DNA from: a virus
Strand: one strand, 5' to 3'
IMG/VR virus record: IMGVR_UViG_3300006880_000001
Coordinates: 32,001-96,000 of that record
Length of the DNA: 64,000 bases
Shown here one piece after another: positions 10,350 through 56,097 of this stretch. The translations under genes were made by a program, and so were the position numbers. The stretch's first letter is position 1; the number at the start of each line of letters is the position of its first letter. Under the pieces are notes generated by a model. It saw only the letters and a list, made by a program, of their open reading frames with translations. It made no database searches and was not told the DNA's origin.

Positions 10350-10361
10350 GGTTCAGGCTCC

Positions 10362-12487: not shown

Positions 12488-12492
12488 CGGGT

Positions 12493-12508: not shown

Positions 12509-12520
12509 AGCCCTTTTCTG

Positions 12521-13153: not shown

Positions 13154-13226
13154 GCGAAGAATCGTACCATGAGCGTCCGCGCATTTCGCTGCGCGTTCGA
13201 TCAGCCGATCTATATTGGGCACCATT

Positions 13227-13697: not shown

Positions 13698-13707
13698 AGG
13701 AACGCCC

Positions 13708-14406
13708 ATGAACACGAAAGACATCGACGTCTCAGAATGGGTACACCACGAATTCCGGTCGGCCTTCCTCCTCCCTCAGGACCGCCCAGGCGGATTCGTC
13801 CGTGAGCTCTTCACCTACAGTCGGTCGCAGCCGATTGTCGGTACGACGCGGATGTCGGAGCTGGTCCATACCAACATCCCGCGGTCGGGCGACAGCGGTC
13901 TCCCTCGGGATTGGGGGATGGTCGTCTTGGGGTGGCGCGCGACCACGGACGCTCCGATGGATGAAGCGCTCATGCGCTGGGCGGCCGCGACGGTGGTGCG
14001 CTTCGAGTACAACAGCAGATGGTACGCCGATGCGCCGCTCGCCAATCTCCTCCGCAAACCGCAGCCGCTTCTCGACAGACCTGTGACGATGGAGGACTTC
14101 GCTATGCCGCGTAGGGCGACATCGGACGAATCGAGCGCACCACTCGGCGGCGCGCTCCCCATCTATATGCGCGACAACATCTCGTACAAGGTCGACGTCG
14201 CCGCGCCGCATGCAGAGTCGGACGCCTTCCGTGCACACCTGGCGTGTGAGTGGCCCGGCGGTGTCACGCAGGCCCTGGGCCACCTGCGCGCCCTGCAGAT
14301 GACGAAGGAGACTTCTCCGTTGGTCTCCGCTGCCATCGGCGCCCTGACGAAAGACGTCACGTTCTGGGTGCACTTCAACGGACTGCTCAAGCGCCCGATC
14401 CAGTGA
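13708..14406 (+). CDS. diverged paralog of the major capsid protein
   Basis: Shares RSQPI, TN(I/V)PRxGDSGLP, RFEYN, LPIY(M/L)RDxISYK and GLxxRPI with 29452-30144. Confidence 0.85.
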   Translation: MNTKDIDVSEWVHHEFRSAFLLPQDRPGGFVRELFTYSRSQPIVGTTRMSELVHTNIPRSGDSGLPRDWGMVVLGWRATTDAPMDEALMRWAAATVVRFEYNSRWYADAPLANLLRKPQPLLDRPVTMEDFAMPRRATSDESSAPLGGALPIYMRDNISYKVDVAAPHAESDAFRAHLACEWPGGVTQALGHLRALQMTKETSPLVSAAIGALTKDVTFWVHFNGLLKRPIQ

Positions 14407-14440
14407 AAGCTGTCACCCCGCCGGCGTACCATCCTTCGGA

Positions 14441-14644
14441 ATGGCTCGAACGAGTTTCGCGAAGGAGACCGTCCTCTGCCTCTGGCAGTGGAACCCCCGC
14501 CTTGGGCGCTGGCTGTCGCTCCGGCGGGTGACCGCCTCGACGGCGCAGGAGAAGCTGGCGGCGGCGCGTCGGGCGCGTCCCGAGGGGATCTTCGCCGTCA
14601 GCCTGCGCGCCCCGACCGGGAAGCCTAGCGATACCAGCCCTTGA
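14441..14644 (+). CDS. hypothetical protein
   Basis: Class A motif 14412 and TACCAT before ATG. Confidence 0.55.
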   Translation: MARTSFAKETVLCLWQWNPRLGRWLSLRRVTASTAQEKLAAARRARPEGIFAVSLRAPTGKPSDTSP

Positions 14645-15263
14645 GGCCAGCGGCCTTCTTGCGCTTGCGCTTGGGCAGGAAGACGAGGAGGCCAGCGCCG
14701 AGAACACCCGCGGCGAGGAGGCCGTACACGAGCTTCTTGCGACCCGACGTCGGTCCGATGGCCGAGGTCGCGCTGCCGTCGGGGAGCATGGGTGGGAGCG
14801 GGACCGTCTCCGCCGGACCGGGCGCTGGCGTGTTGGCGGGAACGGCCCGGATGTACGCCCCGACCGCGCGGATGGCGGTCGGCAGCCCCGGCGCGTACCG
14901 CGCGAGGCGATCGTACGCGGCCGCGCTGGACACCGTCGAGGCGAGCTCGGCGAATGGGATGGCGCCGTAGCGCTCCGCCGGGGCGGCGACCGTCGGCGCC
15001 GCGACCAGGATGGCGCCCGCGTGGACGCCGGCCGCGTTGGCGATGGCCTTGAGGGACGTCAGCGTCCTCTCCCCCAAGATCCCATCGACGGGGATGAGCG
15101 CCTTGCCCATCTTCCGCAGGACCCTGTTGATCTCCTCCTGGACTTGTCGGAACAGCGTACTCGTCGTCGGGCTGTCGTAGCCGAAGCAGCCAGCGGCGGC
15201 GCACTTGTACTGGGCCGGAGCGAGACCCAGAACGCCGAGACCCATGGATCCGAGACCTTGCAT
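14625..15263 (-). CDS. membrane-anchored protein with peptidoglycan-binding-like segment
   Basis: MQGLGSMGLGVLG start; VDGILGERT; C-terminal TM + KRKRKK + GLKG. Confidence 0.65.
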   Translation of the reverse strand: MQGLGSMGLGVLGLAPAQYKCAAAGCFGYDSPTTSTLFRQVQEEINRVLRKMGKALIPVDGILGERTLTSLKAIANAAGVHAGAILVAAPTVAAPAERYGAIPFAELASTVSSAAAYDRLARYAPGLPTAIRAVGAYIRAVPANTPAPGPAETVPLPPMLPDGSATSAIGPTSGRKKLVYGLLAAGVLGAGLLVFLPKRKRKKAAGLKGWYR

Positions 15264-15281
15264 GGGGCGATGGTAGCAGAG

Positions 15282-15297
15282 GATCGAAGGTACGATC
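15282..15297. promoter_or_regulatory. class B motif, bidirectional
   Basis: GATCGAAGGTACGATC flanked by TACCAT-ATG (minus) and TAGTCT-ATG (plus). Confidence 0.85.
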
Positions 15298-15315
15298 CAC
15301 GGTAGTCTCGAGGCC

Positions 15316-16149
15316 ATGACCTGCCTGCCGGCGTGGCACCCCAAGCTCCGGGCCGTCCTCGCTCGCGACGTCAAGGTCCCCTCGGGATGTCCGGTAGATG
15401 GCAGCGGCAACATCCCCTGTCGCCCCGACACCCTTCGTGCGAAGGCGGAGGCGCTCCTCGTTGGCCGCGGGCTCTGGCGCGGGGCCCTATCGCTCGACGC
15501 CTACTCGCTCGGTCGCAACATCGCCACCGAGGTTGGCGCCGGCACGACACCCGAGGAGATGGTGGCTCTCGCAGAGGCGTCGGTGAACCAGGCCAAGCGC
15601 CGCGGCAAGAGCGTAAGCGCGCTCATCCTGACCGCGAGCTCGGGGAACGCGGGGTGGTACGGACCGATCCACGGCCCCTCGGGTGTCGGCTCGGCGCCGT
15701 ACGGTCGGTGGACGGCGTCGTCGAAGGATCCGACGCTCGCGACGCTGACCGTCGCCGACTTCGTCCTCCGCGGCGAGTCGGGCAACTTCACCCATGGTGC
15801 TGACGACCAGCTCGGGCTCGAGTACTTCGACGACCCCGTCGGGCTCATGCAGCGCCATGCGACGAACGGCCAATACTGGGTGGGGCCGTTGCCGGGTGTC
15901 GATCCCTGGCGCATCACCCTCTTCCGAACCATGAAGTCGGTGAAGCCGACCAGCCTCGTCGGCGCGCCGCTGCTCGTCCGTGGTGTGGCGTTGGCGCGCG
16001 CCGGACATCAGAAGCCGCCCCCCGTCGACTCTCTACCCGTATGCGCGTCCAGCGGGGGATTCGTCGCAGCCTTGGCGGTCGGCACTGCCATGGTGGGTGG
16101 GGCGCTCTGGTGGCGACGTCGTCACGGCCCCCTCCCCCTCCCACGGTAG
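15316..16149 (+). CDS. putative cell-wall hydrolase (SleB/Hydrolase_2-like) with C-terminal TM
   Basis: LGRNIATEVG...VALAEASVNQ pattern, NFTHGA; TM + WWRRR. Confidence 0.5.
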   Translation: MTCLPAWHPKLRAVLARDVKVPSGCPVDGSGNIPCRPDTLRAKAEALLVGRGLWRGALSLDAYSLGRNIATEVGAGTTPEEMVALAEASVNQAKRRGKSVSALILTASSGNAGWYGPIHGPSGVGSAPYGRWTASSKDPTLATLTVADFVLRGESGNFTHGADDQLGLEYFDDPVGLMQRHATNGQYWVGPLPGVDPWRITLFRTMKSVKPTSLVGAPLLVRGVALARAGHQKPPPVDSLPVCASSGGFVAALAVGTAMVGGALWWRRRHGPLPLPR

Positions 16150-16164
16150 ATCGAACCTTCGATC
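16149..16164. promoter_or_regulatory. class B motif
   Basis: GATCGAACCTTCGATC then TGGTACCGT, ATG16183. Confidence 0.8.
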
Positions 16165-16182
16165 CTGTGGTACCGTGCATGC

Positions 16183-16245
16183 ATGGCGAACAACTGCTGC
16201 ACTCGCCCGATCGTCAAGCCGAAGCGGCCACCGGTCAAGCGCTGA
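16183..16245 (+). CDS. 20-aa basic peptide MANNCCTRPIVKPKRPPVKR
   Basis: ATG at leaderless position of class B promoter. Confidence 0.5.
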   Translation: MANNCCTRPIVKPKRPPVKR

Positions 16246-16273
16246 ACCCGTCCTGTCCCCCTCGGAGGAAGTG

Positions 16274-16606
16274 ATGCCCACCTCGTACGCCAACATCGGC
16301 CGCGGCAACTACCAGGTCCGCCTCCACGGCCGCGCCAAGACCGTCTCGCGCACCCAGCTCGAAGCCATCGACCGCGACATCGATCGCCTGCGCAGCGGCA
16401 AGGGCTGCGTCATCTTCTTCCCCCGCAAGAAGGGTGGGAAGGGCATTCGCGCCGTGCAGCGCTGCGAGGGCAAGAGCACCTTCAAGACGCCGTCCTTCCG
16501 CCAGGCGGCGCGGACCCGCGCGAAGAAGCAGTGCCGGAAGGCGAACCTCTTCACGCGCTGCAAGACGGGGCGGGTCATCGGCCGGAAGAAGAGCAAGAAG
16601 CGCTGA
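16274..16606 (+). CDS. basic Cys-containing core protein
   Basis: GGAGG RBS; MPTSYANIG...RKKSKKR. Confidence 0.7.
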   Translation: MPTSYANIGRGNYQVRLHGRAKTVSRTQLEAIDRDIDRLRSGKGCVIFFPRKKGGKGIRAVQRCEGKSTFKTPSFRQAARTRAKKQCRKANLFTRCKTGRVIGRKKSKKR

Positions 16607-16967: not shown

Positions 16968-17273
16968 GTGCCGCTGCCGGAAGGACATCGTCGGATCATG
17001 GCACTGGTCAACGCCTCCATCCCCTCTGGCCGAGCGCCCGAGCTCCCGCTCGATCCGGACATGGAGGCTGCGCTCGAGGCGTCCGACCGCGAGCGCGCGG
17101 CCATCTACGCCTCGATGGACGACCTCTCCGACAAGTTCGAGCAGCTCGCCGACGACATCGACAGCGGTCCACAGAACGATGCCATCCCCGTCGAGATCTC
17201 GGAGGACGAGGACAGCCTCGCCGTCCATGTCGACGCCGCCCTCGACAGCACGCCGGTCCCGCGCCGGCGCTAG
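16968..17273 (+). CDS. acidic hypothetical protein
   Basis: GTG just after upstream stop; D/E-rich. Confidence 0.55.
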   Translation: MPLPEGHRRIMALVNASIPSGRAPELPLDPDMEAALEASDRERAAIYASMDDLSDKFEQLADDIDSGPQNDAIPVEISEDEDSLAVHVDAALDSTPVPRRR

Positions 17274-20098
17274 ATGAGCTCGAGCGTCACGAGGACGTTG
17301 GTCTGCGCCGTGCCCGGGAGCGCCGACTTGGTGACCTGCATCGAGAGCAGGTCACCCGCGGCGAACGAGATGGAGGCCGAGGCCGACGAGCCGCTCGACG
17401 CTGTGTGGGCGACGGTCAGCACGAGACCGGTCGAGGCGCCGTTCTTCCGCATGGTGTAGACCGTGTTGCCGGCGCCGACGCCGGCCGTGCAGTGCATGCG
17501 CAGATTGCGGATGATGCAGGCGCGGGGGATGTTGAGCTGGATCTCGGTGGTGCCGACCAACGCCTGGCCGAAGCCCGGCGCCATGAAGCGCGCGGCGGTC
17601 ACCGCGGCGTCCGTGTCGACGGTGCCGAAGGTGACGGGGAAGCCGCCGACGGAAGCCCAGCCAGTGTTGTTGGCGGCGGCCTCCTTCGTCCAGAGGACCG
17701 TCGCTTGGCCGCCGCTCGAGTTGACGAGGGCGGAACCGATCGGAGCGGTGACGTTGTTCTGCGGACCCGCAGCGAGCGCCATGAGGGCGATCTGTCGCCC
17801 CAGACCGGCGTTGCCGCCTGCGGTGACGCCCACGGACGCGCCAACAACGACGCCGGTCGGGAAGCCGATGAGCGCGTTCGCGGTACCACCGGTGACCTGG
17901 ATGCTGCCCGCGTTGCCGGAGGTGGTGGTCCAGATCCGGGCCGGTACCGGGGTCCCATCCGCCTGGTTGGTGAGGAGGATCGAACCGCCGCCCCTACCAC
18001 CCGCCAGCGTCGTCGTTGCGGCGTCGCCGACTTCCTTGCTCGACACGTTCAGGATGTCGGAGACGTTGCCGGTGCCGCTGGTGGAGCCGACGGCCATGCC
18101 GAGCGTGGCAGCCGCGGTGCCGCCAACGACCTGCACGCGAGAGCCGAGACCACACCGGTTCGACGTGATGCGTAGCTGGCCGCCGCTGTTGGAGGCGACG
18201 GCGGTCGTGAGGACACCGTTGATGCGGTTGATGACGTCGACGAGGGCCTGGTCGGCCGCCGTGAAGACGATCGACTGATTTGTCGTCGCGTCGATGTTGA
18301 CCGTGAGCGCCTCACCACCGACGAAGCCGGTCGGGTAGGTACCGGCGACGCCAGTGCGCTGCGCCTGCGTACAGCTGAAGGTGATGGTCTGCGGCGCGCC
18401 GCCATTGACGGCGACGGTCAGGGTGTCGCCATTGGTCATGACGTACGGCATCGGAAGCGTAGAGACCACGGCCCCCGTGTTGTCGGCGGGGACCTCGATG
18501 CCGGCGTTGGTGATGACGCCGAGGTTGTGTTGGGCGATCCGCGAGCCGAAGATCGGCTCCGTCGTACCTCGCGTCCATCGTGCGATCGAGAACGCGTTGA
18601 TGACCATGCAACCGCTGACGGTCGAGTTGCTGATCGATCCGGGGGACGCCGAGAAGTTGACGCAGGTCAGCAGATTCAGTCCGCCGGTCAACGCCATGGA
18701 CCCACGCACCGTCTGGTGGTCGCCGAGACCTTCGATGGCGCGCAGGTTGAAGCCGACCGCGGTGTTGACGGCGGTAGGGGTCATCCGTGCGATGCACCCC
18801 GCGACCAGTACCTCGTACGCCGATTCGATGACGAAGCCGGTCGGGCCACGCGTGGAGTCGGCGATGCTGTTGCTGACGTGCACCTTCGACGGCAACGTGG
18901 ACCCGCCCACGCCGAAGATGTACACCGGCGTGACGTCGACGGCGGAGGCCGCGACGATGTAGCGGGCGATGTTGGCGGTGTAGGTCAGGCCCTCGATGTA
19001 GCGGAAGAGCTTGACCTGTGGGCGGCCGGTGCCGAGATCCGGATCGACGTTGCCTTCGACATCGCGCACGAAGACGTTGCCGATCATGTCGACGTTCTGC
19101 AGGTTCAGGGCGTCGACCGACCCGCGAATGACGTTGCTGGCGATCACCGATCGCTTGTGCGAGGTGGCGCCCGGACCGTCTCCGGTGAACGTACAGCTCA
19201 GCGCCGAGTTCGAGACGTTGTGGGTCTGGTTACAGTGGATGTTGAATTCGAAGTTGCCCACCAGACCCGTCGGCTCGAAGTCGATCTCCTGGTCGTGGGG
19301 GCCGCTCAGCCAGTTGTGCGAGATGATGATCCGCCCCGTCGCGCGCTGGATGCCGATGCCCGAACGCGAGCTCACGCAGTCGAGCGCGTTGGCGACGATG
19401 CGGACGTTGGTGACCTCTTTGGCCGACTCGCCGAGGATCTGGATGCCATCGCCGGGCTGCCCGAAGAACCAGCAGCCGACGACCTCGACGTCCGTCGGGC
19501 CGACCGCGTCGGAGGCCGCGCCGCGGATGCGGATGATGTGGTCCTGCTCGGAAATGTTGGTGAGGCTGAGGCCATCGAACCCGAGGTTGTAGAAGCGGAT
19601 CCGCTTCGAGCCGCCGTGGACATAGAAGAGGTAGTAATCCTGGAGGCCGGACGAGCCGGTCATGAGCAACTTCGAGGCAGGACCGTCACCCAAGAAGAAG
19701 ATGTCGGTGACGCCGTTGAGCTCGAAGTTCCACACGTTGGGCGGGGCGGGGCGCTGGAATGCGTAGTTCCCCGGGGGGAAGTAGAGGATGCCGCCACCAG
19801 CAGCCGACATCGTCGCGATCGCCGTCTTCGCCATCGCGTCGTTGTTCGTTACGCCATCGCGCACGAAGCCGAAGTCGCGGACCGCGTTGTACACGCGTAG
19901 GTTGTGCAGGTTCTGGATCGTCCAGCCGGAGGTTGGCGTGCTGGTCTTGAGCCACGTGCGCGGCAGGACCGTGGACGTATCGATACCGATGGAACCCACC
20001 GTCGCCGCGTACGGAGCGGTATCGTACGACGTCGCTTGCTGTGCTGCGTCGATCAGGTTGACCCGCAGCTTCTGGGTGCCGAAGACGCCGGCCGTCAT
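17270..20098 (-). CDS. spike/receptor-binding protein, right-handed beta-helix (pectate-lyase-like)
   Basis: VRDFGFVRDGVTNN..GGGILYFPPGNY, repeated Asn-ladder strands; 942 aa. Confidence 0.85.
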   Translation of the reverse strand: MTAGVFGTQKLRVNLIDAAQQATSYDTAPYAATVGSIGIDTSTVLPRTWLKTSTPTSGWTIQNLHNLRVYNAVRDFGFVRDGVTNNDAMAKTAIATMSAAGGGILYFPPGNYAFQRPAPPNVWNFELNGVTDIFFLGDGPASKLLMTGSSGLQDYYLFYVHGGSKRIRFYNLGFDGLSLTNISEQDHIIRIRGAASDAVGPTDVEVVGCWFFGQPGDGIQILGESAKEVTNVRIVANALDCVSSRSGIGIQRATGRIIISHNWLSGPHDQEIDFEPTGLVGNFEFNIHCNQTHNVSNSALSCTFTGDGPGATSHKRSVIASNVIRGSVDALNLQNVDMIGNVFVRDVEGNVDPDLGTGRPQVKLFRYIEGLTYTANIARYIVAASAVDVTPVYIFGVGGSTLPSKVHVSNSIADSTRGPTGFVIESAYEVLVAGCIARMTPTAVNTAVGFNLRAIEGLGDHQTVRGSMALTGGLNLLTCVNFSASPGSISNSTVSGCMVINAFSIARWTRGTTEPIFGSRIAQHNLGVITNAGIEVPADNTGAVVSTLPMPYVMTNGDTLTVAVNGGAPQTITFSCTQAQRTGVAGTYPTGFVGGEALTVNIDATTNQSIVFTAADQALVDVINRINGVLTTAVASNSGGQLRITSNRCGLGSRVQVVGGTAAATLGMAVGSTSGTGNVSDILNVSSKEVGDAATTTLAGGRGGGSILLTNQADGTPVPARIWTTTSGNAGSIQVTGGTANALIGFPTGVVVGASVGVTAGGNAGLGRQIALMALAAGPQNNVTAPIGSALVNSSGGQATVLWTKEAAANNTGWASVGGFPVTFGTVDTDAAVTAARFMAPGFGQALVGTTEIQLNIPRACIIRNLRMHCTAGVGAGNTVYTMRKNGASTGLVLTVAHTASSGSSASASISFAAGDLLSMQVTKSALPGTAQTNVLVTLELI

Positions 20099-22245
20099 CA
20101 GATCAGCTCCACGGTAGCCGTCACGTTCGTCTGCCCCGCGGTGACCGCGCCCGACTTCGTGATGCTGATGGAGAGCAGGTCTCCAGCGACCACCGTGAAG
20201 GTGTGGGTCGTGTCCACGGCGTTGCCGGTGGCGGTGTTGCCAAGGGTCGTCAGGAGCGTGGTGTCCACGCCGTTCTTGCGGACGGTGTACGTGACGGTCG
20301 CGGCGTCGGTGCCAGCACCGGTCACGTGGACGCGCAGGTTGCGGACCGTCCCCGGGCGAGGGAGATTGATCTGGAGCTCGGTGGCGCCGGCGGTCGCCGT
20401 GGTGAAGCCGGGCGCGAAGTACAGCGCCGTCGCGACCGTGCCGGCGTCGCCGATGCCGAAGACGACCGGTCCACCGCCACAGGGGACCCAGCCTGCGGCG
20501 CCGGTGCCGGTCTCCTTGTAGTAGAACGCGGTGTCCTGGCCACCGTCACGGCGGGCGTATAGCGACCCGACGCGGGCGGTGACGACGCCTTCGGGCGAAC
20601 CGTTGCCGGTGCGGTACGTGGTGCCGACCGCCGACGCGTTGAGGCCGATGTACGGGAATACGGTGGTGCCGACCTCGGAGTAGTCGGCCGTCGCGGCGTC
20701 CCACAGGTTGGTGGCGTCCATCAGCTGGCCAGTGGTGAGCGAACCACCACCGGCGTCCTCGTAGCGGATGCCGACGTCGATCTGGTCGGCCTGGTTGTCG
20801 ACCATCTGCACGTTGACGATGTTGGCGCCATTGCAGAGGAGGCGAATGGCCGATCGGAACGTACCCGCGGCCGCCGTCATCTGGTTGCCGACGAGCTGGA
20901 CGCCGTCGACGGCGGCGTTGACCGCCTGAACGTCGATGGCGTCGACCGCGGTGGCGCCCGCGTTCGAGCTCCGGCAGATGTTGTCGCCGACCGACACGTT
21001 GATCGGGTCGAGCAGGTAGATGAACGGCGCGGCCGTGACCTCCTGCACGAGGGTGTTGTTGCCGCAGCGGACGATCGTCGGCTGGATGGCATCCGCGAGC
21101 TCCATCGAGAAGCACGCACCGACACCGGCACCGCTCGTGCGGACCCAGACGTTGCCCGAGAAGGCCAGATGGCTCACTCGACGCGTCACGCGCCAGGAGG
21201 CGTCGGTGCTGGCGTAGACACCGCTGGTCTGAACATTGCCGACGAAGGTGGAGTCCGCGACGTTCGTGATCTCGACGAAGCCGTTCAGGATGACGTTGTT
21301 GTTGAACGCCATCGCGTTGATGCGATCGGTGTCGTGGCCGACGAGGGACACCGCACGCCGCTCGGTGGCGTGGGTGTGGATGATCTCGTTGCCGGTGATG
21401 ACGACGTCCTGCGTCACCCCCGCCGCGGTCGAGACGAAGGCGATCTCGCGCTCGCAGCCGGTCAGGTAGCTGTCGCAGACCCAGAGGTTCGACACGCCCT
21501 GCTCGACGCCGACGCCATAGCGGGCGATCGACTCGAAGACCGAGTCGAGGACCCACACGCGCTGCACCAGGTTGCCAGCTGCGCCGAAGAGGTGGAGGCC
21601 GTCGCCCGCGTTCGCGACTGTGTTTTGGAAGCGGCAGCGGAAGAACTGGATCTCCGTCGGAGAGCCGGTACCGTCGCCGATCTCGACCAGGTGGTTCTGC
21701 CGCGACGCCGCCGGGTTCGAGAGCCCGCTACCGTCGAAGGTCACATCCTCGAATCGGATCTTTGACGCGTTGCCGCGGATCCGGAAGAGGCTCCACGCTG
21801 CCGCACCGGCGTTGCCGCTCTGCTTGAAGACGGTCGCGCTGCCCTGCCCGACGATGATGACGTTGGCCATCGCGTTCATGTCGATGGAGTACGGATTGGC
21901 TCCGTCCTTCGACATGAGGTACGTCCCGCGCGGGGCGTAGACGACCCCGCCGCCGGCCGCGTTGCAGGCGATGATGGCGTTGTTGATCGGGACGCGGTCG
22001 TCGGCGACGCCGTCGCCGGCGGCACCGTAGTCGCGGACCGAGTACCAGTGGAACGATTGGTTCAGGATCGTCCACGCGGTGTTGCCCGCTGCGGTCTTCT
22101 GGTAGGCACCCGGCGTCCCCTCGCGGCTGTACAACGAGCCGATGACGGCGGACACGCCACCCCCCGCCGTCGGATCCCCAGGCTGGCTGAGGATGTCGAC
22201 GAGGTTGAGGCGGATCTTGATGGCGCCAGCGTAGCCTGCCGTCAT
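20098..22245 (-). CDS. second beta-helix spike protein
   Basis: SVRDYGAAGDGVADD..GGGVVYAPRGTY; C-terminal domain shared with 17270-20098. Confidence 0.85.
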   Translation of the reverse strand: MTAGYAGAIKIRLNLVDILSQPGDPTAGGGVSAVIGSLYSREGTPGAYQKTAAGNTAWTILNQSFHWYSVRDYGAAGDGVADDRVPINNAIIACNAAGGGVVYAPRGTYLMSKDGANPYSIDMNAMANVIIVGQGSATVFKQSGNAGAAAWSLFRIRGNASKIRFEDVTFDGSGLSNPAASRQNHLVEIGDGTGSPTEIQFFRCRFQNTVANAGDGLHLFGAAGNLVQRVWVLDSVFESIARYGVGVEQGVSNLWVCDSYLTGCEREIAFVSTAAGVTQDVVITGNEIIHTHATERRAVSLVGHDTDRINAMAFNNNVILNGFVEITNVADSTFVGNVQTSGVYASTDASWRVTRRVSHLAFSGNVWVRTSGAGVGACFSMELADAIQPTIVRCGNNTLVQEVTAAPFIYLLDPINVSVGDNICRSSNAGATAVDAIDVQAVNAAVDGVQLVGNQMTAAAGTFRSAIRLLCNGANIVNVQMVDNQADQIDVGIRYEDAGGGSLTTGQLMDATNLWDAATADYSEVGTTVFPYIGLNASAVGTTYRTGNGSPEGVVTARVGSLYARRDGGQDTAFYYKETGTGAAGWVPCGGGPVVFGIGDAGTVATALYFAPGFTTATAGATELQINLPRPGTVRNLRVHVTGAGTDAATVTYTVRKNGVDTTLLTTLGNTATGNAVDTTHTFTVVAGDLLSISITKSGAVTAGQTNVTATVELI

Positions 22246-45496: not shown

Positions 45497-46012
45497 ATGC
45501 CACGTGGGCGGTTCGCACCGGACGAGAGCGGGCACCTGTACGGTCGCCTTACCGTCATCGCCAGAGAGCCGAATCGCGGCAGCTACGCGACCTGGCGCTG
45601 TCGTTGCGTGTGCGGCAACGAGGTCGTCGTGACGGCGACCATGCTGCGTTCTGGCAATACGACTTCGTGCGGCTGCCTGCGGACCGAGAAGACTGTTGCG
45701 CGGAGCTTCCGCCACGGAGCCGCTCGCCGTAGGAGGATCTGGCCAGAGTACTACGTCTGGGCCGAGATGGTGCAGCGTTGTACGAACACCGCGCATCCCC
45801 AATACCGCGACTACGGTGGTCGAGGTGTAGCGGTGGAGTTCCGATCGTTCGACGAATTCATAGAAGAAGTTGGACGGCGCCCGTCGCCAGACCTGACGAT
45901 CGATCGGATTGACAACGATCGTGGCTACGCGCCAGGGAACGTCAGATGGGCCACGTACACGGAGCAACGCCTGAACCAACGGCGCATGAAGCCCTCCAAG
46001 GGAGGTATTTGA
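45497..46012 (+). CDS. HNH endonuclease (homing-type)
   Basis: YGRLTVI, WRCRC.CG, SCGC, YGGRG, IDRIDND.GY.PGNVRWAT..EQ..N. Confidence 0.9.
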   Translation: MPRGRFAPDESGHLYGRLTVIAREPNRGSYATWRCRCVCGNEVVVTATMLRSGNTTSCGCLRTEKTVARSFRHGAARRRRIWPEYYVWAEMVQRCTNTAHPQYRDYGGRGVAVEFRSFDEFIEEVGRRPSPDLTIDRIDNDRGYAPGNVRWATYTEQRLNQRRMKPSKGGI

Positions 46013-50173: not shown

Positions 50174-52054
50174 ATGACCACTGCCCGCGAGAACCTCGGT
50201 CCCGCCGAGACCATCATTCAGGCACTACTCGCGTACACGGACCACCTGGTGCACAACCGCCCCGGCATCGTCACGCCGGATCGGACGGTGACCATTGGCC
50301 TTCGCTGGGAACCCGTGACCCACAAGGTGGAGCAGGACCAGAAGGTCGTCTACCGGCTGACCAAGGTCGGCAAGAAGACGCAGCGGGTCCGCGTTGGGGC
50401 CCTGCGGCCCGACAAGAAGGTGGTCGAGGCCGGGCGGGAGGTTGCCGAGTACCGTGACAGCGGCCTCTTCCCCGAGGTGGCGACCTGGTTCTACCAGCAG
50501 GTCGCCAATGTCTGGCGCCTCGACAACGAGTTCGCCGCGCGGTGGGCGTCGTACGCCTACGGCCAGGAGCACCGTGACCTGAAGTGCGTCCTCGCGGCTT
50601 TCATGCTCGTCCAGACCCGCAAGGGCGACCCGATCGTCGAAGGTGGAGAGGTCCTCTTCCACGACGAAGACTTCCGCGACGTCGGCGAGGCCATGATGCT
50701 CCTCCACAAGAAGGGGGACGACAAGGGCCTGAACCCGAAGCTGCTACTCCGGATCTACGACATCCTGACGCTGCCGGCGGTCGCGGCCATCAACCACGAC
50801 CTCGGCTTCGGGCAGTCGACGCGTCATCCATTCCTCGGCCGCTGGCCGCGGGTGGTGGAGAAGTGGCTCCGCCACCGCGAGGAGAACCCGAAGTTGCTCG
50901 AGGGTCTCATCAAGGCCGGGTTCCGCACGGCGGTCATGGAGCTCGCGCGGCGCGTCGGCTACAAGCCGACCTCCACCCGCTTCTTCGAAGTCCTGCGCTG
51001 GAAGCAGGTCCAGGCCGACGACGGTCGGCGGGAGCTCGCCATCGGGCAGGCTACCGCGGCCGCGGAGAGCTGGGCAGGCCTCTCCGAGGAGCAGATCTGC
51101 CAGGCGATCGTCGCCGCCCGCTACGACTGGAAGCGGATCGTCAGCCTCCTGCCGAAGACCGTCGGCGTCACGCGTGCGGTGATCGCCGCGGCGATGGAGT
51201 CCGGCGGCCTCTCGAACAAGGATCTCGTCATCCTGACGCCCACGCTCGAAGAGCTCGGCCTGCTCGACGTCGGATCGATCAAGGATCGCTGGTCCGCTGC
51301 GCTCAAGGCGGCTGACGACATGCGCGCCAGCAACGTCGCCCGCAACGTTCGCAACAAGGAGACCAAGGAGAAGCTCGAGGAGGCCGCCGACGGCGCGCTG
51401 CAGAAGCAGGTCGAGGCGGTGACCCGCCAGCTGCGGGTCTACTTCATGGTCGACATCTCGGGATCCATGGAGAGCAGCATCGCCACGGCCAAGGAGTACC
51501 TCGCCAAGTTCATCCAGGGATTCCCGTCGGACCAGGTCCACGTCGCGGTCTTCAACACCCAGGGCAAGGAGGTCGCCATCAAGCACCGTTCGGCCGCGGG
51601 GGTCGAGAATGCCTTCCGTGGCTACGTCGCCGGCGGTGGCACCGACTACGGCGCCGGCGTCCGCGCGCTACGTGACCGCAAGCCCAAGGCGGACGAGGAC
51701 GTCCTCTTCATCTTCGTCGGCGACGAGGAGGCTGAGCCCTTCGCCTCGTCCGTGACGCTGTCGGGTCTCAACCCCATGGCCTTCGGCCTGCTCAAGGTTC
51801 GCCCGACGGGGGCCGGGTTCCGGGGGGTCCAGGATCACAACGCCGCCGTGCGCGAGACGGCGCGGCAGCTCAAGATTCCGTGTTTCCCGATCGAGGAGGC
51901 GATCTTCGCCGACCCCTACGCGATTCCGCGCACCATCCGCGCGCTGATCGCGGCGACGCCGATCACGCAGACGACGACGACGGTCACGCCGCGCAAGACC
52001 CTGATCGACCAGATCCTCAAGACCGAGCTCCTGACGAAGCCGACCTGGGCCTGA
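50174..52054 (+). CDS. vWA-domain protein with large helical N-terminus (TROVE/Ro60-like architecture)
   Basis: MIDAS DISGS, GGTD, FVGDE at C-terminus. Confidence 0.8.
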   Translation: MTTARENLGPAETIIQALLAYTDHLVHNRPGIVTPDRTVTIGLRWEPVTHKVEQDQKVVYRLTKVGKKTQRVRVGALRPDKKVVEAGREVAEYRDSGLFPEVATWFYQQVANVWRLDNEFAARWASYAYGQEHRDLKCVLAAFMLVQTRKGDPIVEGGEVLFHDEDFRDVGEAMMLLHKKGDDKGLNPKLLLRIYDILTLPAVAAINHDLGFGQSTRHPFLGRWPRVVEKWLRHREENPKLLEGLIKAGFRTAVMELARRVGYKPTSTRFFEVLRWKQVQADDGRRELAIGQATAAAESWAGLSEEQICQAIVAARYDWKRIVSLLPKTVGVTRAVIAAAMESGGLSNKDLVILTPTLEELGLLDVGSIKDRWSAALKAADDMRASNVARNVRNKETKEKLEEAADGALQKQVEAVTRQLRVYFMVDISGSMESSIATAKEYLAKFIQGFPSDQVHVAVFNTQGKEVAIKHRSAAGVENAFRGYVAGGGTDYGAGVRALRDRKPKADEDVLFIFVGDEEAEPFASSVTLSGLNPMAFGLLKVRPTGAGFRGVQDHNAAVRETARQLKIPCFPIEEAIFADPYAIPRTIRALIAATPITQTTTTVTPRKTLIDQILKTELLTKPTWA

Positions 52055-52063
52055 GGGGGCATC

Positions 52064-52435
52064 ATGGCGAACCCCGTCGAGATCCCCGTCCTCGAGATGC
52101 TCGAGGCCTACCGCAAGCTGGAAGATGCCCTCGCAGCCGTCTTCGGCTTCGATCCCTGTGCGTACGCCGGATTCGGCGACTGCACAGACATGTGGTGGGT
52201 GTCGGATGGCCGGAAGGTGTGGTCGAGCGATCAACAGCTCACCGAGGAGGTGATCACGGCTGGGCGCCACCTCTATTCCCACGTGATCAAGGAGACGCGA
52301 CGCTGCGGTTCCTACGTCGCGTTCCAATTCGAGACGGACACCGACTCGGAGATCGTAGATCTCGTTCACGTGTTCACCACCGATCTCCAGATCCATGACG
52401 AGGGACTCCTCGAGATCGCCCAGGAGACCTGGTGA
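52064..52435 (+). CDS. hypothetical protein
   Basis: 123-aa ORF inside operon. Confidence 0.65.
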   Translation: MANPVEIPVLEMLEAYRKLEDALAAVFGFDPCAYAGFGDCTDMWWVSDGRKVWSSDQQLTEEVITAGRHLYSHVIKETRRCGSYVAFQFETDTDSEIVDLVHVFTTDLQIHDEGLLEIAQETW

Positions 52436-53382
52436 GCTGGCGAGATCTCCTCGGATCGTCTGACCAGACGATCACGTTGCCGTGGGTGGGTGGAGCGACC
52501 CTGCACGGACCGCGGTCTTGGTGGACCATCACCTACGAGGCGATGCGGTTCCTACGAGGCCACGATCACGGCTGGTACACCTTCCGCATCGATCGCCGCT
52601 GCGTCACCGATCCGCAGCCGGCGGAGCCCGATCCGACGGCCCTCCACTTCGACGCCCACGGGTACCTCGTCGGGGACCGCCTCGCGCGCTGGGACATCCG
52701 GCCTCGCGCAACTGAGCCTGCCGCCATCATCAGCTACACGGAGCCCGTCTTCCTCATCGACCCGGGCCTCGACCGGTTCGTACGCGTCAGCGCGGGCCGC
52801 GTCTACGAGCGCGGTCCCCTCATCTACCGCCAGCAAGAGATGCCGGTCGGGCCGGAGCAGGAGGTCCTCACGGCCTTCCTCGATCGGGCAGAGAACGTCG
52901 ACGCGGTCAGCGGTGTGTCGCCGGCGCTCGAGGCGGCCTTCCGAATGGAGACCCACCAGCGCGCGGAGGCGGAGCGACGTCGAGAGGAGCTCCGCCAAGA
53001 AGCGGCCCGCCTCGAGACGGAGCGTCAGGAGGCGGAACGTCGCCAGCAGATCGTCCAGCAGCTCGGCGACGGAGCGGGCCGACGCGCGGTCGCCCGGACC
53101 GACTTCGGCGACGCCGCGCGAGCGGCCCTCGCCATCGTGGACGCCGAGCTCATCGACCACCGTCGAGGACAGCGCGGAGAGTACGTCGTCCGCTACCGGA
53201 TCGAGAACCGACGCTTCGAATGCGTCTGTGACGAACAGCTCCGGATCATCGACAGTGGTATCTGCCTCGCTGACCACGCGACCGGCGAGAAGGGCGATAC
53301 ACGCTTCACGCTCGAGTCCCTCCCGACGGTCATTCGCCAAGCCATCCGCGAGAACCGCCTCGTCGTCTACCGACACGTCTGA
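52432..53382 (+). CDS. putative E2-like conjugating protein
   Basis: C-terminal IIDSGICL resembling the E2 GxICL catalytic Cys; operon context. Confidence 0.5.
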   Translation: MSWRDLLGSSDQTITLPWVGGATLHGPRSWWTITYEAMRFLRGHDHGWYTFRIDRRCVTDPQPAEPDPTALHFDAHGYLVGDRLARWDIRPRATEPAAIISYTEPVFLIDPGLDRFVRVSAGRVYERGPLIYRQQEMPVGPEQEVLTAFLDRAENVDAVSGVSPALEAAFRMETHQRAEAERRREELRQEAARLETERQEAERRQQIVQQLGDGAGRRAVARTDFGDAARAALAIVDAELIDHRRGQRGEYVVRYRIENRRFECVCDEQLRIIDSGICLADHATGEKGDTRFTLESLPTVIRQAIRENRLVVYRHV

Positions 53383-53396
53383 AGAGGAGCAGGGAC

Positions 53397-53750
53397 ATGG
53401 ACATGAAGCTACCCCTCGTATCGCCAACGAACTCCGATCAGGATGTGGTGTTCGTATCCAACCTCGTCATCGGCCCCGGTGTGGTCCTGGAGGTGCAACG
53501 GACGGCTCCTGCCAAGGCAGGCAGAGTTGTCCAGGTGTGCATCCACGGTTGCATCGTCGACGGACGTCCGTCGCAGCACAGCGATGCCCCGCTCATCACA
53601 CTCGTCGATGCTGACGATCGGATGGTCCTCGTCATCAAGGACGCGATCATCACACGCCAAGGACCTGATCTGGCGTCCCCGATCCCCGCCGAAGTGCCGG
53701 TGGTCGAGTGGACCTCGCTGCCGCCCGAACCGCCCGAGCCCAAGGAGTGA
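53397..53750 (+). CDS. hypothetical protein
   Basis: GGAG RBS; 117 aa. Confidence 0.55.
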   Translation: MDMKLPLVSPTNSDQDVVFVSNLVIGPGVVLEVQRTAPAKAGRVVQVCIHGCIVDGRPSQHSDAPLITLVDADDRMVLVIKDAIITRQGPDLASPIPAEVPVVEWTSLPPEPPEPKE

Positions 53751-53755
53751 CCGTG

Positions 53756-54190
53756 ATGGAAACCGGCGTCCTCATCGCCAGGGGCATGGCCCCCCTCTAC
53801 TGGCACTTGCCGGAAGGGCGAACCTCCGGTAGCTTGCCCGACTCGCGCGTGCTGTGGGACACCATCTGGCTCCACCGCCACGACCTGGAGGGCTTCGCGC
53901 ATACCCACCCCGGCGGCGGCCAGCCGTGGCCGTCGACCGAAGACATCACCACCTTCTTCGCCATCGAGCTCGCGCTCGGGCGCAAGCTGACCTGGTGGAT
54001 CAGCAACCAGGAGCGGACCGTCGTCGTCGTCACCACCGACGACTACGAATTCGACCACGGCGACACGCGGGTCACGAAGTCCGGCGAGGTCATCGAAGGT
54101 CAGAAGTCCCGCCGTCAATCGTATCGCGTCTTCCCGATCCCCGACGAACCGTCCTGGGTCGCCGAACTTCGCCATCAATCCAACCTCTGA
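53756..54190 (+). CDS. JAB/MPN+ metallopeptidase
   Basis: N-terminal ETG and HTHP...PSTED (HxH-x7-S-x2-D). Confidence 0.9.
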   Translation: METGVLIARGMAPLYWHLPEGRTSGSLPDSRVLWDTIWLHRHDLEGFAHTHPGGGQPWPSTEDITTFFAIELALGRKLTWWISNQERTVVVVTTDDYEFDHGDTRVTKSGEVIEGQKSRRQSYRVFPIPDEPSWVAELRHQSNL

Positions 54191-54199
54191 AGGAGCACC

Positions 54200-54496
54200 A
54201 TGAACGAACTGATCCATGTCGAGGGCCGCCGCGAGCTGGTGCGCGACGACGAAGCCCGCGTCAACATCACCTACAAGGGCGAGAACGGGGACCTACCGGA
54301 CACCATCACCTTCGATGCCACCGACGCTGACGTCAAGACGTGGGTCACGGAGGCAGTCCGGGGCGGGCACGTTCCGGGCATCGCCGCCGACCCCGGCGCG
54401 AACTTCCGCGACTTCGTCGTCGATCGCTTCACGCCCACCGACGCGCGGCCGTTCAACCTCATCTCGATCCGCCCGAAGACGCCGTTCGGCCGATGA
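54200..54496 (+). CDS. ubiquitin-like (beta-grasp) modifier, C-terminus ...RPKTPFG-R
   Basis: 98 aa between JAB and E1; penultimate Gly. Confidence 0.65.
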   Translation: MNELIHVEGRRELVRDDEARVNITYKGENGDLPDTITFDATDADVKTWVTEAVRGGHVPGIAADPGANFRDFVVDRFTPTDARPFNLISIRPKTPFGR

Positions 54497-54849
54497 TGAA
54501 CGTCGTCAAGCGATGCCCGGGGTGTGGCGCTACGTGGGTTACGCCCCCGGGATCGATCATCAAATGCCGGAACTGTGGGACGACCTGCGCCGGCACGACG
54601 TCCGTCGCGTTTACCACTGACGCCCCCACGGTACAGACGGCGGACGGTGATGAGACCGCAACAGCGCTCCAACTGGCCGACGCCAAGGTCACGGAGGCCA
54701 GGGATGCGCTGCAGGCTCTCGTCAAGGCGAACCCTGCCCTCGTCCATCCTCAGTGCCGCACGTGGCAATGTCGTCGGTGTCGGCTACGCAACACGATCGA
54801 GATGCTCGAGTGCTGGGAGCCACTTTCACAGGAGGCGAAGAAGTCATGA
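54493..54849 (+). CDS. zinc-ribbon protein
   Basis: CPGC...CRNC and C-x4-CRRC. Confidence 0.6.
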   Translation: MMNVVKRCPGCGATWVTPPGSIIKCRNCGTTCAGTTSVAFTTDAPTVQTADGDETATALQLADAKVTEARDALQALVKANPALVHPQCRTWQCRRCRLRNTIEMLECWEPLSQEAKKS

Positions 54850-55439
54850 CCACCGTAGCGGGTGAGCAGCGGATCGTCATTGCGGGCATCGGAGCGTTGG
54901 GGTCGCATCTCGTGCCCCTGCTGAGGAATCTCCCCGCCGACCTTGTCGTGGTCGACTTCGACCGCGTCGAGAAGAAGAACGTGGCCTCGCAGTTCTACGG
55001 CACCTCCACCGTGGGCCAAACGAAGGTGGAGGCCCTGAAGCGCCTCATGCTGTTCCTCTACGCCGCGCCCGTGCAGGCGAAGGGGTATCGGATCTCCGAG
55101 GCGAACGTCGATGTGCTTCTGGCCGGCGCGACGCTGGTCGTGGATTGCCTCGACAACGGTGATGCGCGTCGACTCGTCCAAGGCTTCGTGCGCCGGCACA
55201 AGGTACCGTGCGTGCACGGCGCCCTCGCCGCCGATGGCAGCTTCGCCCGCGTGATGTGGGACGAGGCGTTTGTCATCGACAACGAGGACGTCGTCGGTCA
55301 GCCGACCTGCGACGGCGGCGAGCACCTGCCGTTCATCGCCGCCACGGCGGCGTGGCTCGCGCAGGCGGTGCAGACGTTCTGCCGGAGCGGAAAACAGTTC
55401 AACTACTATGTTTCTCCGGCGAACGTCATCTTGCTCTGA
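54846..55439 (+). CDS. E1/ThiF-family adenylating enzyme
   Basis: GIGALGS, DFDRVE.KN..SQ, K.EAL, VVDCLDN..AR, PTC. Confidence 0.92.
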   Translation: MTTVAGEQRIVIAGIGALGSHLVPLLRNLPADLVVVDFDRVEKKNVASQFYGTSTVGQTKVEALKRLMLFLYAAPVQAKGYRISEANVDVLLAGATLVVDCLDNGDARRLVQGFVRRHKVPCVHGALAADGSFARVMWDEAFVIDNEDVVGQPTCDGGEHLPFIAATAAWLAQAVQTFCRSGKQFNYYVSPANVILL

Positions 55440-55509: not shown

Positions 55510-55640
55510 GGAAGGGTAAGGGGACCGGGTCCCCGCCAACTGCTAAATTGGTCCACCCCGACAACGCCTCTCGCTGGCCTCGGCTAGCACACGGCAGCTG
55601 TCTACAAGAACGGTCGGTTCGACTCCGACACCCTTCCCCA
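55510..55640 (+). ncRNA. tRNA-like RNA with large variable-arm insert; G-1:C73, 8-nt anticodon loop CTGCTAAA
   Basis: GGAAGGGT/ACCCTTCC + CCA; D stem GGGGAC/GTCCCC; GCCAA/TTGGT; T arm GTCGG-TTCGACT-CCGAC. Confidence 0.75.
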
Positions 55641-55670: not shown

Positions 55671-55803
55671 CGGGGGGACGTCGCCTGGTGGCGACACTTT
55701 CATATGACGAAAGCAATCCCGACAACGCCTCTCGCTGGCCTTGGCTAGCACATGGCGCCTGTCTACAAGGAAGCCGTGACAGGTTCGATTCCTGTACCCC
55801 CGA
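55671..55803 (+). ncRNA. tRNA-like RNA with the same insert; anticodon ATG, 6-bp D stem
   Basis: CGGGGG/CCCCCG; GTCGCC-TGGT-GGCGAC; CTTTC-ATATGAC-GAAAG; ACAGG-TTCGATT-CCTGT; no encoded CCA. Confidence 0.75.
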
Positions 55804-55832
55804 CTGAGCGCAGTCATTTCGAGGTGCTTACA

Positions 55833-55907
55833 CGCGAAGATGCTCATTGGTCGAGCATCGGCCTTAAGAGCCGACAGGAGTCGGTTCAAATCCGACCTAC
55901 GCACCCA
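55833..55907 (+). tRNA. tRNA with TAA anticodon, short variable loop, C1xA72 mismatch
   Basis: GCTC/GAGC D stem; TCGGC-CTTAAGA-GCCGA; GTCGG-TTCAAAT-CCGAC; CCA. Confidence 0.8.
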
Positions 55908-56097
55908 ACTCAGCCCCTCTCCTCGACCGCGCTCGTTATTTGACCGAAGGGTTGTGGGTCGCCCGCCAGATCGGTGCGGTGAACTACACCTCGGCCGCCA
56001 TCCTCGCCAACCAGCTGCAATTGGTTGGTGAGGGTGGCGGCCTCAGCCTTTTGGGGTGAGCGGAATGGTCACTGCGCCGATGTACTATGGTTTGACC

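Follow-up and report, generated by a model that had tools for sequence, protein, structure and literature searches.

Several anti-phage operons of bacteria, namely type II CBASS with Cap2/Cap3, Bil (BilA-D) and Bub, work with ubiquitin-like (Ubl) proteins (Iyer 2006, PMC1779556; Ye 2024, PMC11601596), one operon bringing together a small beta-grasp protein with a C-terminal Gly, an E1 enzyme of the ThiF type, a JAB peptidase for the trimming of the Ubl and a carrier protein bearing a Cys. A comparable operon lies at positions 50174-55439, + strand, of the window, that is, the stretch of 64,000 nucleotides analysed here, which corresponds to bases 32001-96000 of the IMG/VR record IMGVR_UViG_3300006880_000001 and has a GC content of ~67%. 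The parent record is a complete phage genome of 129,359 bp with direct terminal repeats and an estimated completeness of 100%. This bears out an earlier reading made from the letters of the window (the sequence-only reading), which had described a virus-encoded operon of six co-directional genes, and all six are present at these positions. On balance, the operon is regarded as a phage-encoded module for the activation and, probably, conjugation of a Ubl, in which the Ubl-E1-JAB core is well supported and an E2 role for a fourth protein is likely. The core genes are as follows:

50174..52054, + strand: vWA protein, 626 aa; helical N-terminal region of ~410 aa and C-terminal vWA domain with an intact metal-ion-dependent adhesion site (MIDAS); the most conserved gene of the module
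52432..53382, + strand: E2-like protein, 316 aa; modelled with two OB-like barrels, a long helix and a C-terminal alpha-beta4-alpha domain
53756..54190, + strand: JAB/JAMM metallopeptidase, ~144 aa; open reading frame (ORF) open from 53708, conserved start M17
54200..54496, + strand: predicted Ubl (beta-grasp), 98 aa; C-terminus RPKTPFG-R, G97 invariant
54846..55439, + strand: minimal ThiF-type E1, 197 aa; Pfam ThiF; ORF open from 54753

Judged by alignments of homologues, the start codon of the JAB gene is most likely ATG 53756. That of the E1 gene is most likely ATG 54846, giving 197 aa, because homologue alignments support it, because it overlaps the stop of the preceding Zn-ribbon-like gene in ATGA, and because AGGAGG stands upstream of it.

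Besides the shared components, the window module resembles CBASS, Bil and Bub in that its E1 matches the E1 part of the Cap2-type ('E1-E2') models of PADLOC, with a best E of 7e-12. However, there are several differences between them. The window module is encoded by a phage and does not lie in a defence island; its E1 is a bare adenylation domain of 197 aa; its carrier is a fusion of two OB folds and a coiled coil without any E2 sequence match in Pfam or PADLOC; its Ubl ends in F-G and not in G-G; and it always occurs together with the 626-aa vWA protein and sits in tRNA arrays. Another close group is formed by the vWA-MoxR 'FtsH ternary' conflict systems, for which a full set of Ubl-conjugation genes has been reported (Kaur et al. 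2020, PMC7159879), and vWA and Ubl components are also said there to combine in the conflict systems of multicellular bacteria. These systems likewise couple a vWA protein to JAB, E1, E2 and Ubl genes, and one relative of the window module, locus L085, has as neighbours CHAT-TPR and kinase-STAND-TPR genes of the sort that is typical of them. In contrast, no MoxR, FtsH, RING E3, beta-propeller or EAD1 was detected in the window operon or in the scanned accessory ORFs, the N-terminal region of the window vWA protein differs, and the context is a phage tRNA array.

In the literature search, no paper describing a phage module of this composition was found. In the available part of the 2006 survey of prokaryotic Ubl systems, phages appear only for the tail-assembly pair I/K of lambda and vWA is never mentioned (PMC1779556); in a 2021 survey of 224 jumbo phages, the main text, as far as it was available, places TROVE proteins in a few phages and leaves JAB, ThiF and E1-like proteins unmentioned. 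In summary, the module belongs to the known E1-E2-JAB-Ubl kind, and what is new is that it is borne by phages, is always coupled to a vWA protein and is placed among tRNAs.

The Ubl, its JAB peptidase and the E1 enzyme

The connection between JAB and the C-terminus of the Ubl can be read from 89 related loci with a complete Ubl ORF, in which JAB was scored between the E2-like gene and the Ubl gene. In the loci without JAB, the Ubl stops exactly at the Gly in 13/13 cases, whereas in 65 of the 76 loci with JAB it carries a tail of at least one residue (Fisher p = 1.8e-9, uncorrected for shared ancestry). The JAB-less set includes close loci as well as the distant L096, which has 30% identity in the E2-like protein. 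The Gly in question, G97 in the window, is invariant in 58/58 aligned sequences and is the sole invariant residue besides the start Met. R-P-K-T-P-F stands before it, and the tails after it measure 0-61 aa in the loci and 0-170 aa family-wide, the tail in the window being a single Arg; this C-terminus, RPKTPFG-R, is the one noticed earlier, when a 98-aa protein ending in PFG-R was described. Since JAB-less Ubls end at the Gly while JAB-bearing loci mostly carry tails, JAB is most likely the maturase of the Ubl, by which the Gly carboxylate is exposed for E1. That is to say, the proposal of the sequence-only reading that JAB trims the Ubl to a terminal Gly is very probable, given the link between JAB and the tail and the invariance of G97.

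The JAB protein contains E18, E36, H-T-H-P and, 8 residues on, S-x-x-D, all of which are conserved across 50 sequences. The motif of this family runs Glu...H-x-H...S-x-x-D, and the spacing in the window is one residue longer. The identification as a JAB peptidase thus holds by its conserved metal/catalytic motif, though the Pfam score is sub-threshold.

Neither the 98-aa nor the 316-aa protein gave a Pfam match. The model of the 98-aa protein, based on the alignment of 58 sequences, has a predicted local distance difference test score (pLDDT) of 91.6 and follows the order beta-beta-alpha-beta-beta, with strands at 18-25 and 28-31, a helix at 42-55, strands at 73-77 and 86-91, and then a free tail. 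Compared with the PDB by Foldseek, it found nothing at E<=0.001, the best match being a Ubl of T. brucei at E 0.12. In the VIA search, the 50 matches listed are, judged by their titles, mostly Ubl or other beta-grasp domains, for example the UBL domains of NLE1 and WDR12, Fubi, ISG15, SUMO, FAT10, PB1, RA, MoaD and staphylokinase. Z does not rise above 4.9 (8ql1_B, root-mean-square deviation (rmsd) 3.8, 69 residues aligned), with the top matches tied, and the MoaD chains 6jc0_A and 5mpo_B reach Z 3.9. From its model, the 98-aa protein appears to have the right fold class, beta-grasp, without a specific relative. Of the earlier prediction of a beta-grasp fold for 54200-54496, the order of elements fits, and the fold matches are weak throughout (Z<=4.9).

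The E1 was identified by Pfam ThiF (PF00899) at 76 bits against a cut-off of 28.1 (E 3.3e-21), and it matches MoeB (1jw9_B) at E 8e-10. It consists of the adenylation domain alone, most of its homologues being 189-207 aa long within a range of 189-253 aa. The residues G14-x-G16-A-L-G-S, D37, K60, D100-C-x-D103 and T154-C155 are invariant in 39/39 sequences. A Gly-rich nucleotide loop and acidic residues of the Mg/ATP site make up the motif of adenylating enzymes, and the E1 residues agree with it; the ThiF/E1 assignment of the earlier reading is confirmed by the Pfam score and these invariant active-site residues. As an invariant residue, Cys155 is perhaps the one that holds a thioester or persulfide. 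In NCBIfam the nearest relatives with a name are ThiF, MoeB and UbaA, and each scores far under the cut-off of its family. The PRTRC cassette (TIGR03734-03742) was also considered and rejected, PRTRC_ThiF giving 29.1 bits against a cut-off of 144.75 and the other PRTRC models giving 0 matches among the 8 operon proteins. In total, PADLOC, PHROGs and NCBIfam returned for the operon proteins nothing beyond the E1, a weak JAB match and the vWA protein.

The E2-like protein and the vWA protein

The model of the 316-aa protein (pLDDT 89.2) is composed of two barrels (2-66 and 69-144), a helix of 49 residues (164-212) and a C-terminal domain with short helices at 214-221 and 225-234, four strands within 239-274, a loop and a helix at 297-306. 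Among 86 distinct sequences reaching down to 26% identity, G276, C278, L279, D289, L294 and P298 are found in 86/86, so the GICL motif pointed out earlier is confirmed in its G276, C278 and L279. The other Cys and His positions are less constant (C264 84/86, C266 58/86, H282 64/86). A Zn site formed by C264, C266, C278 and H282 was therefore rejected: since C266 and H282 are not conserved, Cys278 is a lone invariant Cys and not part of a four-ligand metal site. It lies within G-[IV]-C-L, 4 residues past the fourth strand (271-274) of the alpha-beta4-alpha domain, and this stretch resembles the active-site stretch G-x-I-C-L-D of canonical E2s.

Whole-chain VIA searches with this model are dominated by OB folds, the best being the tandem OB of Mpa at Z 5.1. 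With the whole chain as query, residues 221-307 gave, among their best matches, RWD-type chains at Z 4.0-4.7, namely Ctf19-Mcm21 at Z 4.7 (rmsd 3.4, 73 residues aligned), the central domain of FANCL at Z 4.1 and KMN at Z 4.0. The RWD and UBC folds share one superfold. Taken together, the 316-aa protein is considered rather probably an E2-like carrier.

The barrels call for a comparison with Mpa/ARC. They align best to the Mpa tandem OB (rmsd 3.7-4.4 over 102-109 residues), and a long helix of coiled-coil appearance adjoins the tandem OB. The N-terminal region of Mpa consists of a coiled coil and a tandem OB, and it binds Pup. However, the order in the window is OB-OB-helix and not helix-OB-OB, and there is no ATPase domain. 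With a Z inside the noise range, the likeness of the modelled barrels to Mpa is to be taken as a resemblance only.

The vWA protein was recognised by Pfam VWA_2 (E 1.1e-8, aa 422-514), and its MIDAS residues D427/S429/S431/T490/D517 are invariant in 27/27 homologues, which agrees with the vWA protein of the earlier reading. Its further label, TROVE-like, did not survive. Pfam TROVE (PF05731) has no match in the genome at E<=10, with the control positive in Deinococcus and Bacteroides, and matches 0/27 of the vWA homologues; phmmer and a profile search of the protein against the PDB gave no TROVE signal, Ro60 being absent from the profile-search results. When residues 1-412 were compared by hhalign with 16 TROVE proteins of Myxococcota, the result (Prob 0.3%, E 0.23) equalled that of reversed and block-shuffled controls, and a full-length hhalign match to TROVE at Prob 87.9% was set aside because its score is carried by the vWA domain. 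A protein language-model search (Atlas) led from the vWA protein to TROVE/DUF2828 clusters at 0.82-0.85, a range rated as a lead only. Ro60 is built of a helical region and a vWA domain with a MIDAS, and the window protein is alike, with ~410 helical residues followed by vWA. The TROVE label is therefore without sequence support, and the tRNA-like RNAs in the neighbourhood make a Ro-like role newly plausible.

In most related loci no more than a few dozen bases separate the vWA stop from the start of the E2-like gene, and therefore the two proteins probably work as a pair. In 8ql1, a UBL domain was solved with a MIDAS domain, and the idea that the vWA protein might read the Ubl is, by this analogy, no more than a thought.

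Conservation of the module and its tRNA setting

The comparison was made on 60 viral loci, 58 of them fetched with the vWA profile and two fetched earlier. The vWA gene is present in 60/60, the E2-like, JAB and Ubl genes in 55/60 and the E1 gene in 50/60, and wherever the genes occur, the order vWA>E2-like>JAB>Ubl>E1 is kept on one strand. In the 5/60 loci without the downstream genes, the contig edge lies just past the vWA gene; five Ubl-bearing loci have no E1, and three of them (L010, L022, L061) end soon after the Ubl. This recurring gene arrangement is far beyond chance. The same order was found in 38 further loci from metagenome-assembled genomes (MAGs) in a species-genome scan; by record titles, 20 of the 38 belong to Myxococcota lineages and 3 to 'Deltaproteobacteria', labels which are only a hint at the host, as the binning of phage contigs into MAGs is unreliable.

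As for the single proteins, the E2-like protein has at least 873 homologues at E<=0.001 among 8000 candidates scored, and the 120 matches listed are without any Pfam domain and bear no source name other than 'hypothetical protein'. The vWA protein has at least 1580 homologues, with 61-69% identity among the matches listed, which are named in their sources as 'hypothetical protein' or, at most, by a generic vWA label. The Ubl falls into 237 representative clusters, and its three best Atlas clusters are 81-95% viral. Many module-bearing viral contigs are 200-618 kb long, and the module is therefore regarded as a hallmark of a clade of large/jumbo phages. At the DNA level, only Virus Rctr197k among deposited phages is similar to the operon (46% query coverage, 69.6% identity). 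In its record KX853510.1 (L001, 5995-8867) the vWA homologue is entered only as a misc_feature, and the E2-like homologue at 7929-8867 (tblastn) is unannotated, an antisense hypothetical coding sequence being annotated at 8397-8849.

In addition to the core genes, the window operon contains three small ORFs, which were matched in 0/60 loci:

52064..52435, + strand: accessory ORF, 123 aa; no Pfam family
53397..53750, + strand: accessory ORF, 117 aa; no Pfam family
54493..54849, + strand: Zn-ribbon-like accessory protein, 118 aa; ATGA overlaps with its neighbours at both ends; weak ribbon matches

The overlap of the Ubl stop and the Zn-ribbon start in ATGA was read from the DNA. For the zinc-ribbon protein of the sequence-only reading, the ORF stands, and its identity as a ribbon has behind it only sub-threshold Pfam matches. 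Some relatives carry CxxC pairs in the tails after the Ubl Gly (P0125, P0128, P0132, P0154, P0209, P0223, P0232). Such fused tails, and in the window the separate Zn-ribbon-like gene adjoining the Ubl gene, call to mind the ubiquitin-ribosomal zinc-ribbon fusions of eukaryotes.

The genes inserted in related modules are highly variable, 217 ORFs falling into 158 clusters with 126 singletons. Among the accessory families are HNH (11 loci), LAGLIDADG, an Rv2179c-like exoribonuclease (4 loci), NUDIX, cytidine/dCMP deaminase, NADAR, HAD_SAK_2 and DHHA1. Endonucleases of the homing type (HNH, LAGLIDADG) stand between core genes, for example at L048:9016-9753 and L040:13027-13986, and in the window an HNH endonuclease gene lies at 45497-46012, ~4 kb upstream of the operon. 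Elsewhere in the window, PHROG matches were obtained for tail-spike proteins, an endolysin, a Dda-like helicase and an HNH endonuclease.

Locus L085 lies in a bacterial chromosome context, on a MAG contig of 1.03 Mb (401-16599), and has the JAB-less form of four genes: vWA, E2-like, Ubl and E1. It sits between the genes of a CHAT-TPR protein and a kinase-AAA_16-TPR protein, its flanks also encode a methyltransferase, a DsbA-like protein and a radical SAM protein, and no tRNA is found nearby. This neighbourhood is similar to that of the conflict systems of multicellular bacteria. This locus suggests that cellular, possibly defence-type, versions of the module exist.

The strongest contextual clue, absent from the sequence-only reading, is given by tRNA arrays and tRNA-like RNAs. 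In 59 loci the module has 3 kb or more of DNA on either side; a tRNA lies within 3 kb of it in 43 of these, and the flanks of 37 contain at least five tRNAs, up to 46 being found in one fetched locus. Upstream, the arrays typically leave a gap of 76-250 nt to the vWA start, and past E1 they set in again on the same strand after a few hundred nt; this placement is also seen in the most divergent members, L092 and L096. The whole genome of the window phage has two canonical tRNAs only. One, tRNA-Leu(taa), lies 394 nt past E1; the other is a tRNA-Ile at window 1110-1186 with the anticodon AAT (A34), which is unusual for bacteria. The RNA genes behind the operon are as follows:

55510..55640, + strand: long-arm tRNA-like RNA 1; Rfam tRNA-Sec 30.9 bits, sub-threshold; member of the aligned family
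55672..55804, + strand: long-arm tRNA-like RNA 2; Rfam tRNA-Sec 27.8 bits, sub-threshold; arm 92% identical to that of RNA 1
55833..55907, + strand: tRNA-Leu (anticodon taa); ARAGORN; Rfam tRNA 47.6 bits

RNA 1 begins 71 nt downstream of the operon. It folds with an 8-bp acceptor stem, a 6-bp D stem, an anticodon-like arm with an 8-nt loop, an extra arm of ~44 nt, a T arm and an encoded CCA. RNA 2 folds likewise, with acceptor stem, 6-bp D stem, anticodon-like arm, an extra arm of similar length and T arm. The fold z is -2.8 for RNA 1 and -3.1 for RNA 2, and the Rfam gathering score for tRNA-Sec is 47. The 92% identity of the two extra arms extends over 52 nt (blastn), whereas the remaining bodies differ. 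ARAGORN misses such elements. They were sought with a detector that combines an orphan T-loop, acceptor pairing and CTCG...ACA[AC]G motifs. In this way 121 elements (113 distinct) of 105-155 nt were found in 58/99 sources, with an extra arm of ~44-60 nt in the variable-arm position. In an alignment of 93 sequences, CTC and ACA.G are invariant and the outer helix of the arm covaries, one pair for example being GC in 69 sequences and AU in 20. The arm is shared among the copies of one genome in the window, and a reading by eye suggests the same elsewhere. A canonical anticodon loop is present in 35/113 elements and an encoded CCA in 29/113, and therefore many of them may not be decoders. These long-arm tRNA-like RNAs are apparently an undescribed RNA family.

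Of the complete modules, 61 are flanked on each side by 1.5 kb or more; in 41 of them an element lies on the same strand within 1.5 kb, the median distance being 188 nt. For the reverse association, 80 viral loci matched by a strict RNA pattern were examined. At least one core gene lies within 9 kb in 26 of them (two or more in 24), and 25 of these 26 have the element. The other 54 have no core gene within 9 kb, and by our own detector 14 of them have the element and 40 do not. When 10 element-bearing contigs without a nearby module were searched whole, the E2-like gene was found elsewhere in 2 and not in 8, the eight being seven fragments of 5-68% completeness and one complete genome. In other words, the association from RNA to module is weaker than that from module to RNA.

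No promoter-like site was found, and the 3 terminator-like sites compare with 2.3 expected, two of them lying inside the tRNA-like RNAs. After the tRNA cluster and before an ORF at 56056, a near-perfect inverted repeat of ~20 bp occupies 55993-56044, for which Rfam gives spurious microRNA-family matches.

This arrangement recalls the Ro60/Rsr-YrlA systems. The tRNA-like YrlA RNAs have been reported from the same strand as the Ro60 gene and no more than 4 kb away from it, 22 phages being among the cases (Chen et al. 2014, PMC4201824). The likeness lies in a helical and MIDAS vWA protein beside co-oriented tRNA-like RNAs, also in phages. However, TROVE is not detectable in the window vWA protein. 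The 5' and 3' ends of YrlA lie in the Ro-binding stem, whereas the ends of the window RNAs form an acceptor stem and the conserved helix takes the variable-arm position. No GNCGAA motif was noticed in the window RNAs, with no search aimed at it. Moreover, Ro60 systems are not known to include Ubl enzymes. The parallel is striking, yet it is an analogy.

Proposed mechanism and competing explanations

According to the proposed mechanism, JAB would cut the Ubl precursor right after Gly97, so that a single Arg would be removed here. The 197-aa E1 would then adenylate the exposed Gly carboxylate, perhaps passing the Ubl to Cys155, and the 316-aa protein, whose C-terminal alpha-beta4-alpha domain would serve as the E2-like carrier, would then receive the Ubl at its invariant Cys278. 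The two OB-like barrels and the coiled coil of that protein could serve for oligomerisation or for the binding of substrate or RNA, and the helical and MIDAS-vWA protein may be an adaptor, a receptor or a target. In this scheme the relay by thioesters, the part played by the vWA protein and the existence of targets are what we infer. Since the module stands among tRNA arrays beside long-arm RNAs, its work is probably tied to tRNA or translation, or to an RNA-protein particle, in infection.

A number of observations weigh against this proposal. The match of JAB to Pfam Prok-JAB (PF14464; E 0.002, 18.4 bits) is under the cut-off of 25. In 11 of the 76 JAB-bearing loci the Ubl is tail-less, and JAB may therefore also, or instead, deconjugate. 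Some loci are incomplete in spite of sufficient downstream DNA: L020 and L056 have no detectable E1 within at least 5 kb, and with several kb present, L086 has only the vWA and E2-like genes and L099 has no detectable Ubl or E1. The E1 is minimal and its best named relatives, ThiF and MoeB, are activators of sulfur carriers, and PADLOC gave no match for operon proteins other than E1. As regards the E2-like protein, 0/41 members match any Pfam E2, UEV or RWD family at E<=5; Foldseek against the PDB found nothing at E<=0.001 for its model or for that of the Ubl; no UBC/E2 chain is among the 50 matches listed in either VIA search of its model; unrelated folds score like the RWD chains for its C-terminal domain; and its Z values are all <=5.2, inside the stated noise range of the tool. 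The E2 candidate of the sequence-only reading is thus plausible by the invariant Cys after a four-stranded sheet and has no match in Pfam, and of the E2 fold that it had expected for 52432-53382, the alpha-beta4-alpha order fits, with weak RWD-type matches and no UBC chain listed.

With such E1 relatives, and with MoaD chains among the fold matches of the Ubl (Z 3.9), it may be asked whether the Ubl is a sulfur carrier, thiocarboxylated at Gly97 by E1 with host sulfur donors for the thiolation of phage tRNA or for a cofactor, the Cys protein being a persulfide relay instead of an E2. Urm1/Uba4, TtuB/TtuC and SAMP2/UbaA are comparable in their minimal ThiF-type E1, their beta-grasp protein with a terminal Gly and their closeness to tRNA biology; UbaA is itself among the best named E1 relatives, the module sits inside tRNA arrays in most loci (43/59 with a tRNA within 3 kb), and the invariant Cys residues of E1 and of the 316-aa protein could hold a persulfide. 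However, the PP-loop ATPase (PF01171), rhodanese (PF00581) and class-V aminotransferase or cysteine desulfurase-type (PF00266) families were not found in the complete genome at E<=1, controls for these searches being positive in 13-14 of 14 reference genomes; a scan of 76 accessory ORFs from related modules brought up nothing sulfur-related; and the 197-aa E1 has no rhodanese domain. The sulfur-carrier pathways described are not known to have a counterpart of the vWA protein and the OB-coiled-coil-Cys protein, which are strictly co-inherited here. The earlier judgement that sulfur transfer is unlikely is in keeping with these searches; its ground, that no ThiG, MoaE or cysteine synthase is nearby, agrees with the operon ORFs by Pfam, in which none was seen, with no search aimed specifically at ThiG and MoaE. 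Host enzymes could still serve, and therefore the probability of a sulfur carrier is lowered, and we consider it unlikely.

The tRNA-like elements invite the further thought that the module is centred on RNA, a Ro60-like vWA protein and the OB-fold protein assembling on the long-arm RNAs as Rsr does on YrlA, while the Ubl machinery modifies a component of the particle or a recruited protein, or charges the RNA 3' end. The frequency of the element near the module (41/61, same strand, median 188 nt), the extra arm with invariant CTC(G) and ACA.G and a covarying helix, its sharing within a genome (92% between the window copies), the Ro60-like protein architecture with the Atlas lead to TROVE clusters, and the accessory Rv2179c-like exoribonuclease (4 loci), HAD_SAK_2 and NADAR all speak for it, as does the position of YrlA beside Ro60 genes (PMC4201824). 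On the other side, Pfam and hhalign gave no TROVE signal, Rfam gave no match to Y RNA or YrlA, 20/61 complete modules have no element within 1.5 kb, the chromosomal copy L085 is without a nearby tRNA, 8/10 element-bearing contigs searched whole, one of them a complete genome, lack the E2-like gene, and the adjacency could merely reflect the inheritance of one genome region. This explanation is accordingly given a small share of probability. A related and equally tentative form of it is an RNA-coupled Ubl system, in which the vWA protein and the OB-fold E2-like protein would sit on the long-arm RNAs and either tag recruited proteins or load the Ubl Gly onto the CCA end. In this form the extra arm would co-evolve with each phage, and the tagged proteins might be, for example, translation factors or tRNA-targeting defence nucleases of the host. 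A role in virion assembly, with Ubl and JAB acting as chaperones of tail morphogenesis like lambda I (Ubl) and K (JAB-NlpC), is very improbable. In its favour, JAB matches a PHROG 'tail protein' family (E 1.1e-4), and Ubl-JAB pairs of the lambda type are known (PMC1779556); but the module lies outside the structural block, with the tail-spike genes 30 kb off at 17270-22245 and with a helicase gene, an HNH endonuclease gene and tRNAs next to it. Moreover, one copy is found in the setting of a bacterial chromosome, and the module has an E1, which lambda-type systems lack, in agreement with PMC1779556.

Ubl activation and, probably, conjugation by a phage-encoded module is thus the preferred explanation, and it bears on the biology of phages in several ways. 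So far, the Ubl conjugation characterised in bacteria has been a defence of the host against phages, in CBASS, Bil and Bub, and the module is the mirror case: large and jumbo phages themselves carry a Ubl kit that is widespread and strongly conserved. The link between JAB and the Ubl tail makes maturation directly testable, and clean mutants can be made at the terminal Gly and at the invariant Cys residues. The placement in tRNA arrays, beside RNAs with a genome-specific arm, points to a link between Ubl chemistry and the biology of tRNA or ribonucleoproteins; if Ubl loading on CCA ends were true, it would join ubiquitin-type and aminoacyl-tRNA-type chemistry. Depending on what is tagged, the module could reveal a new phage strategy of counter-defence or of translation control.

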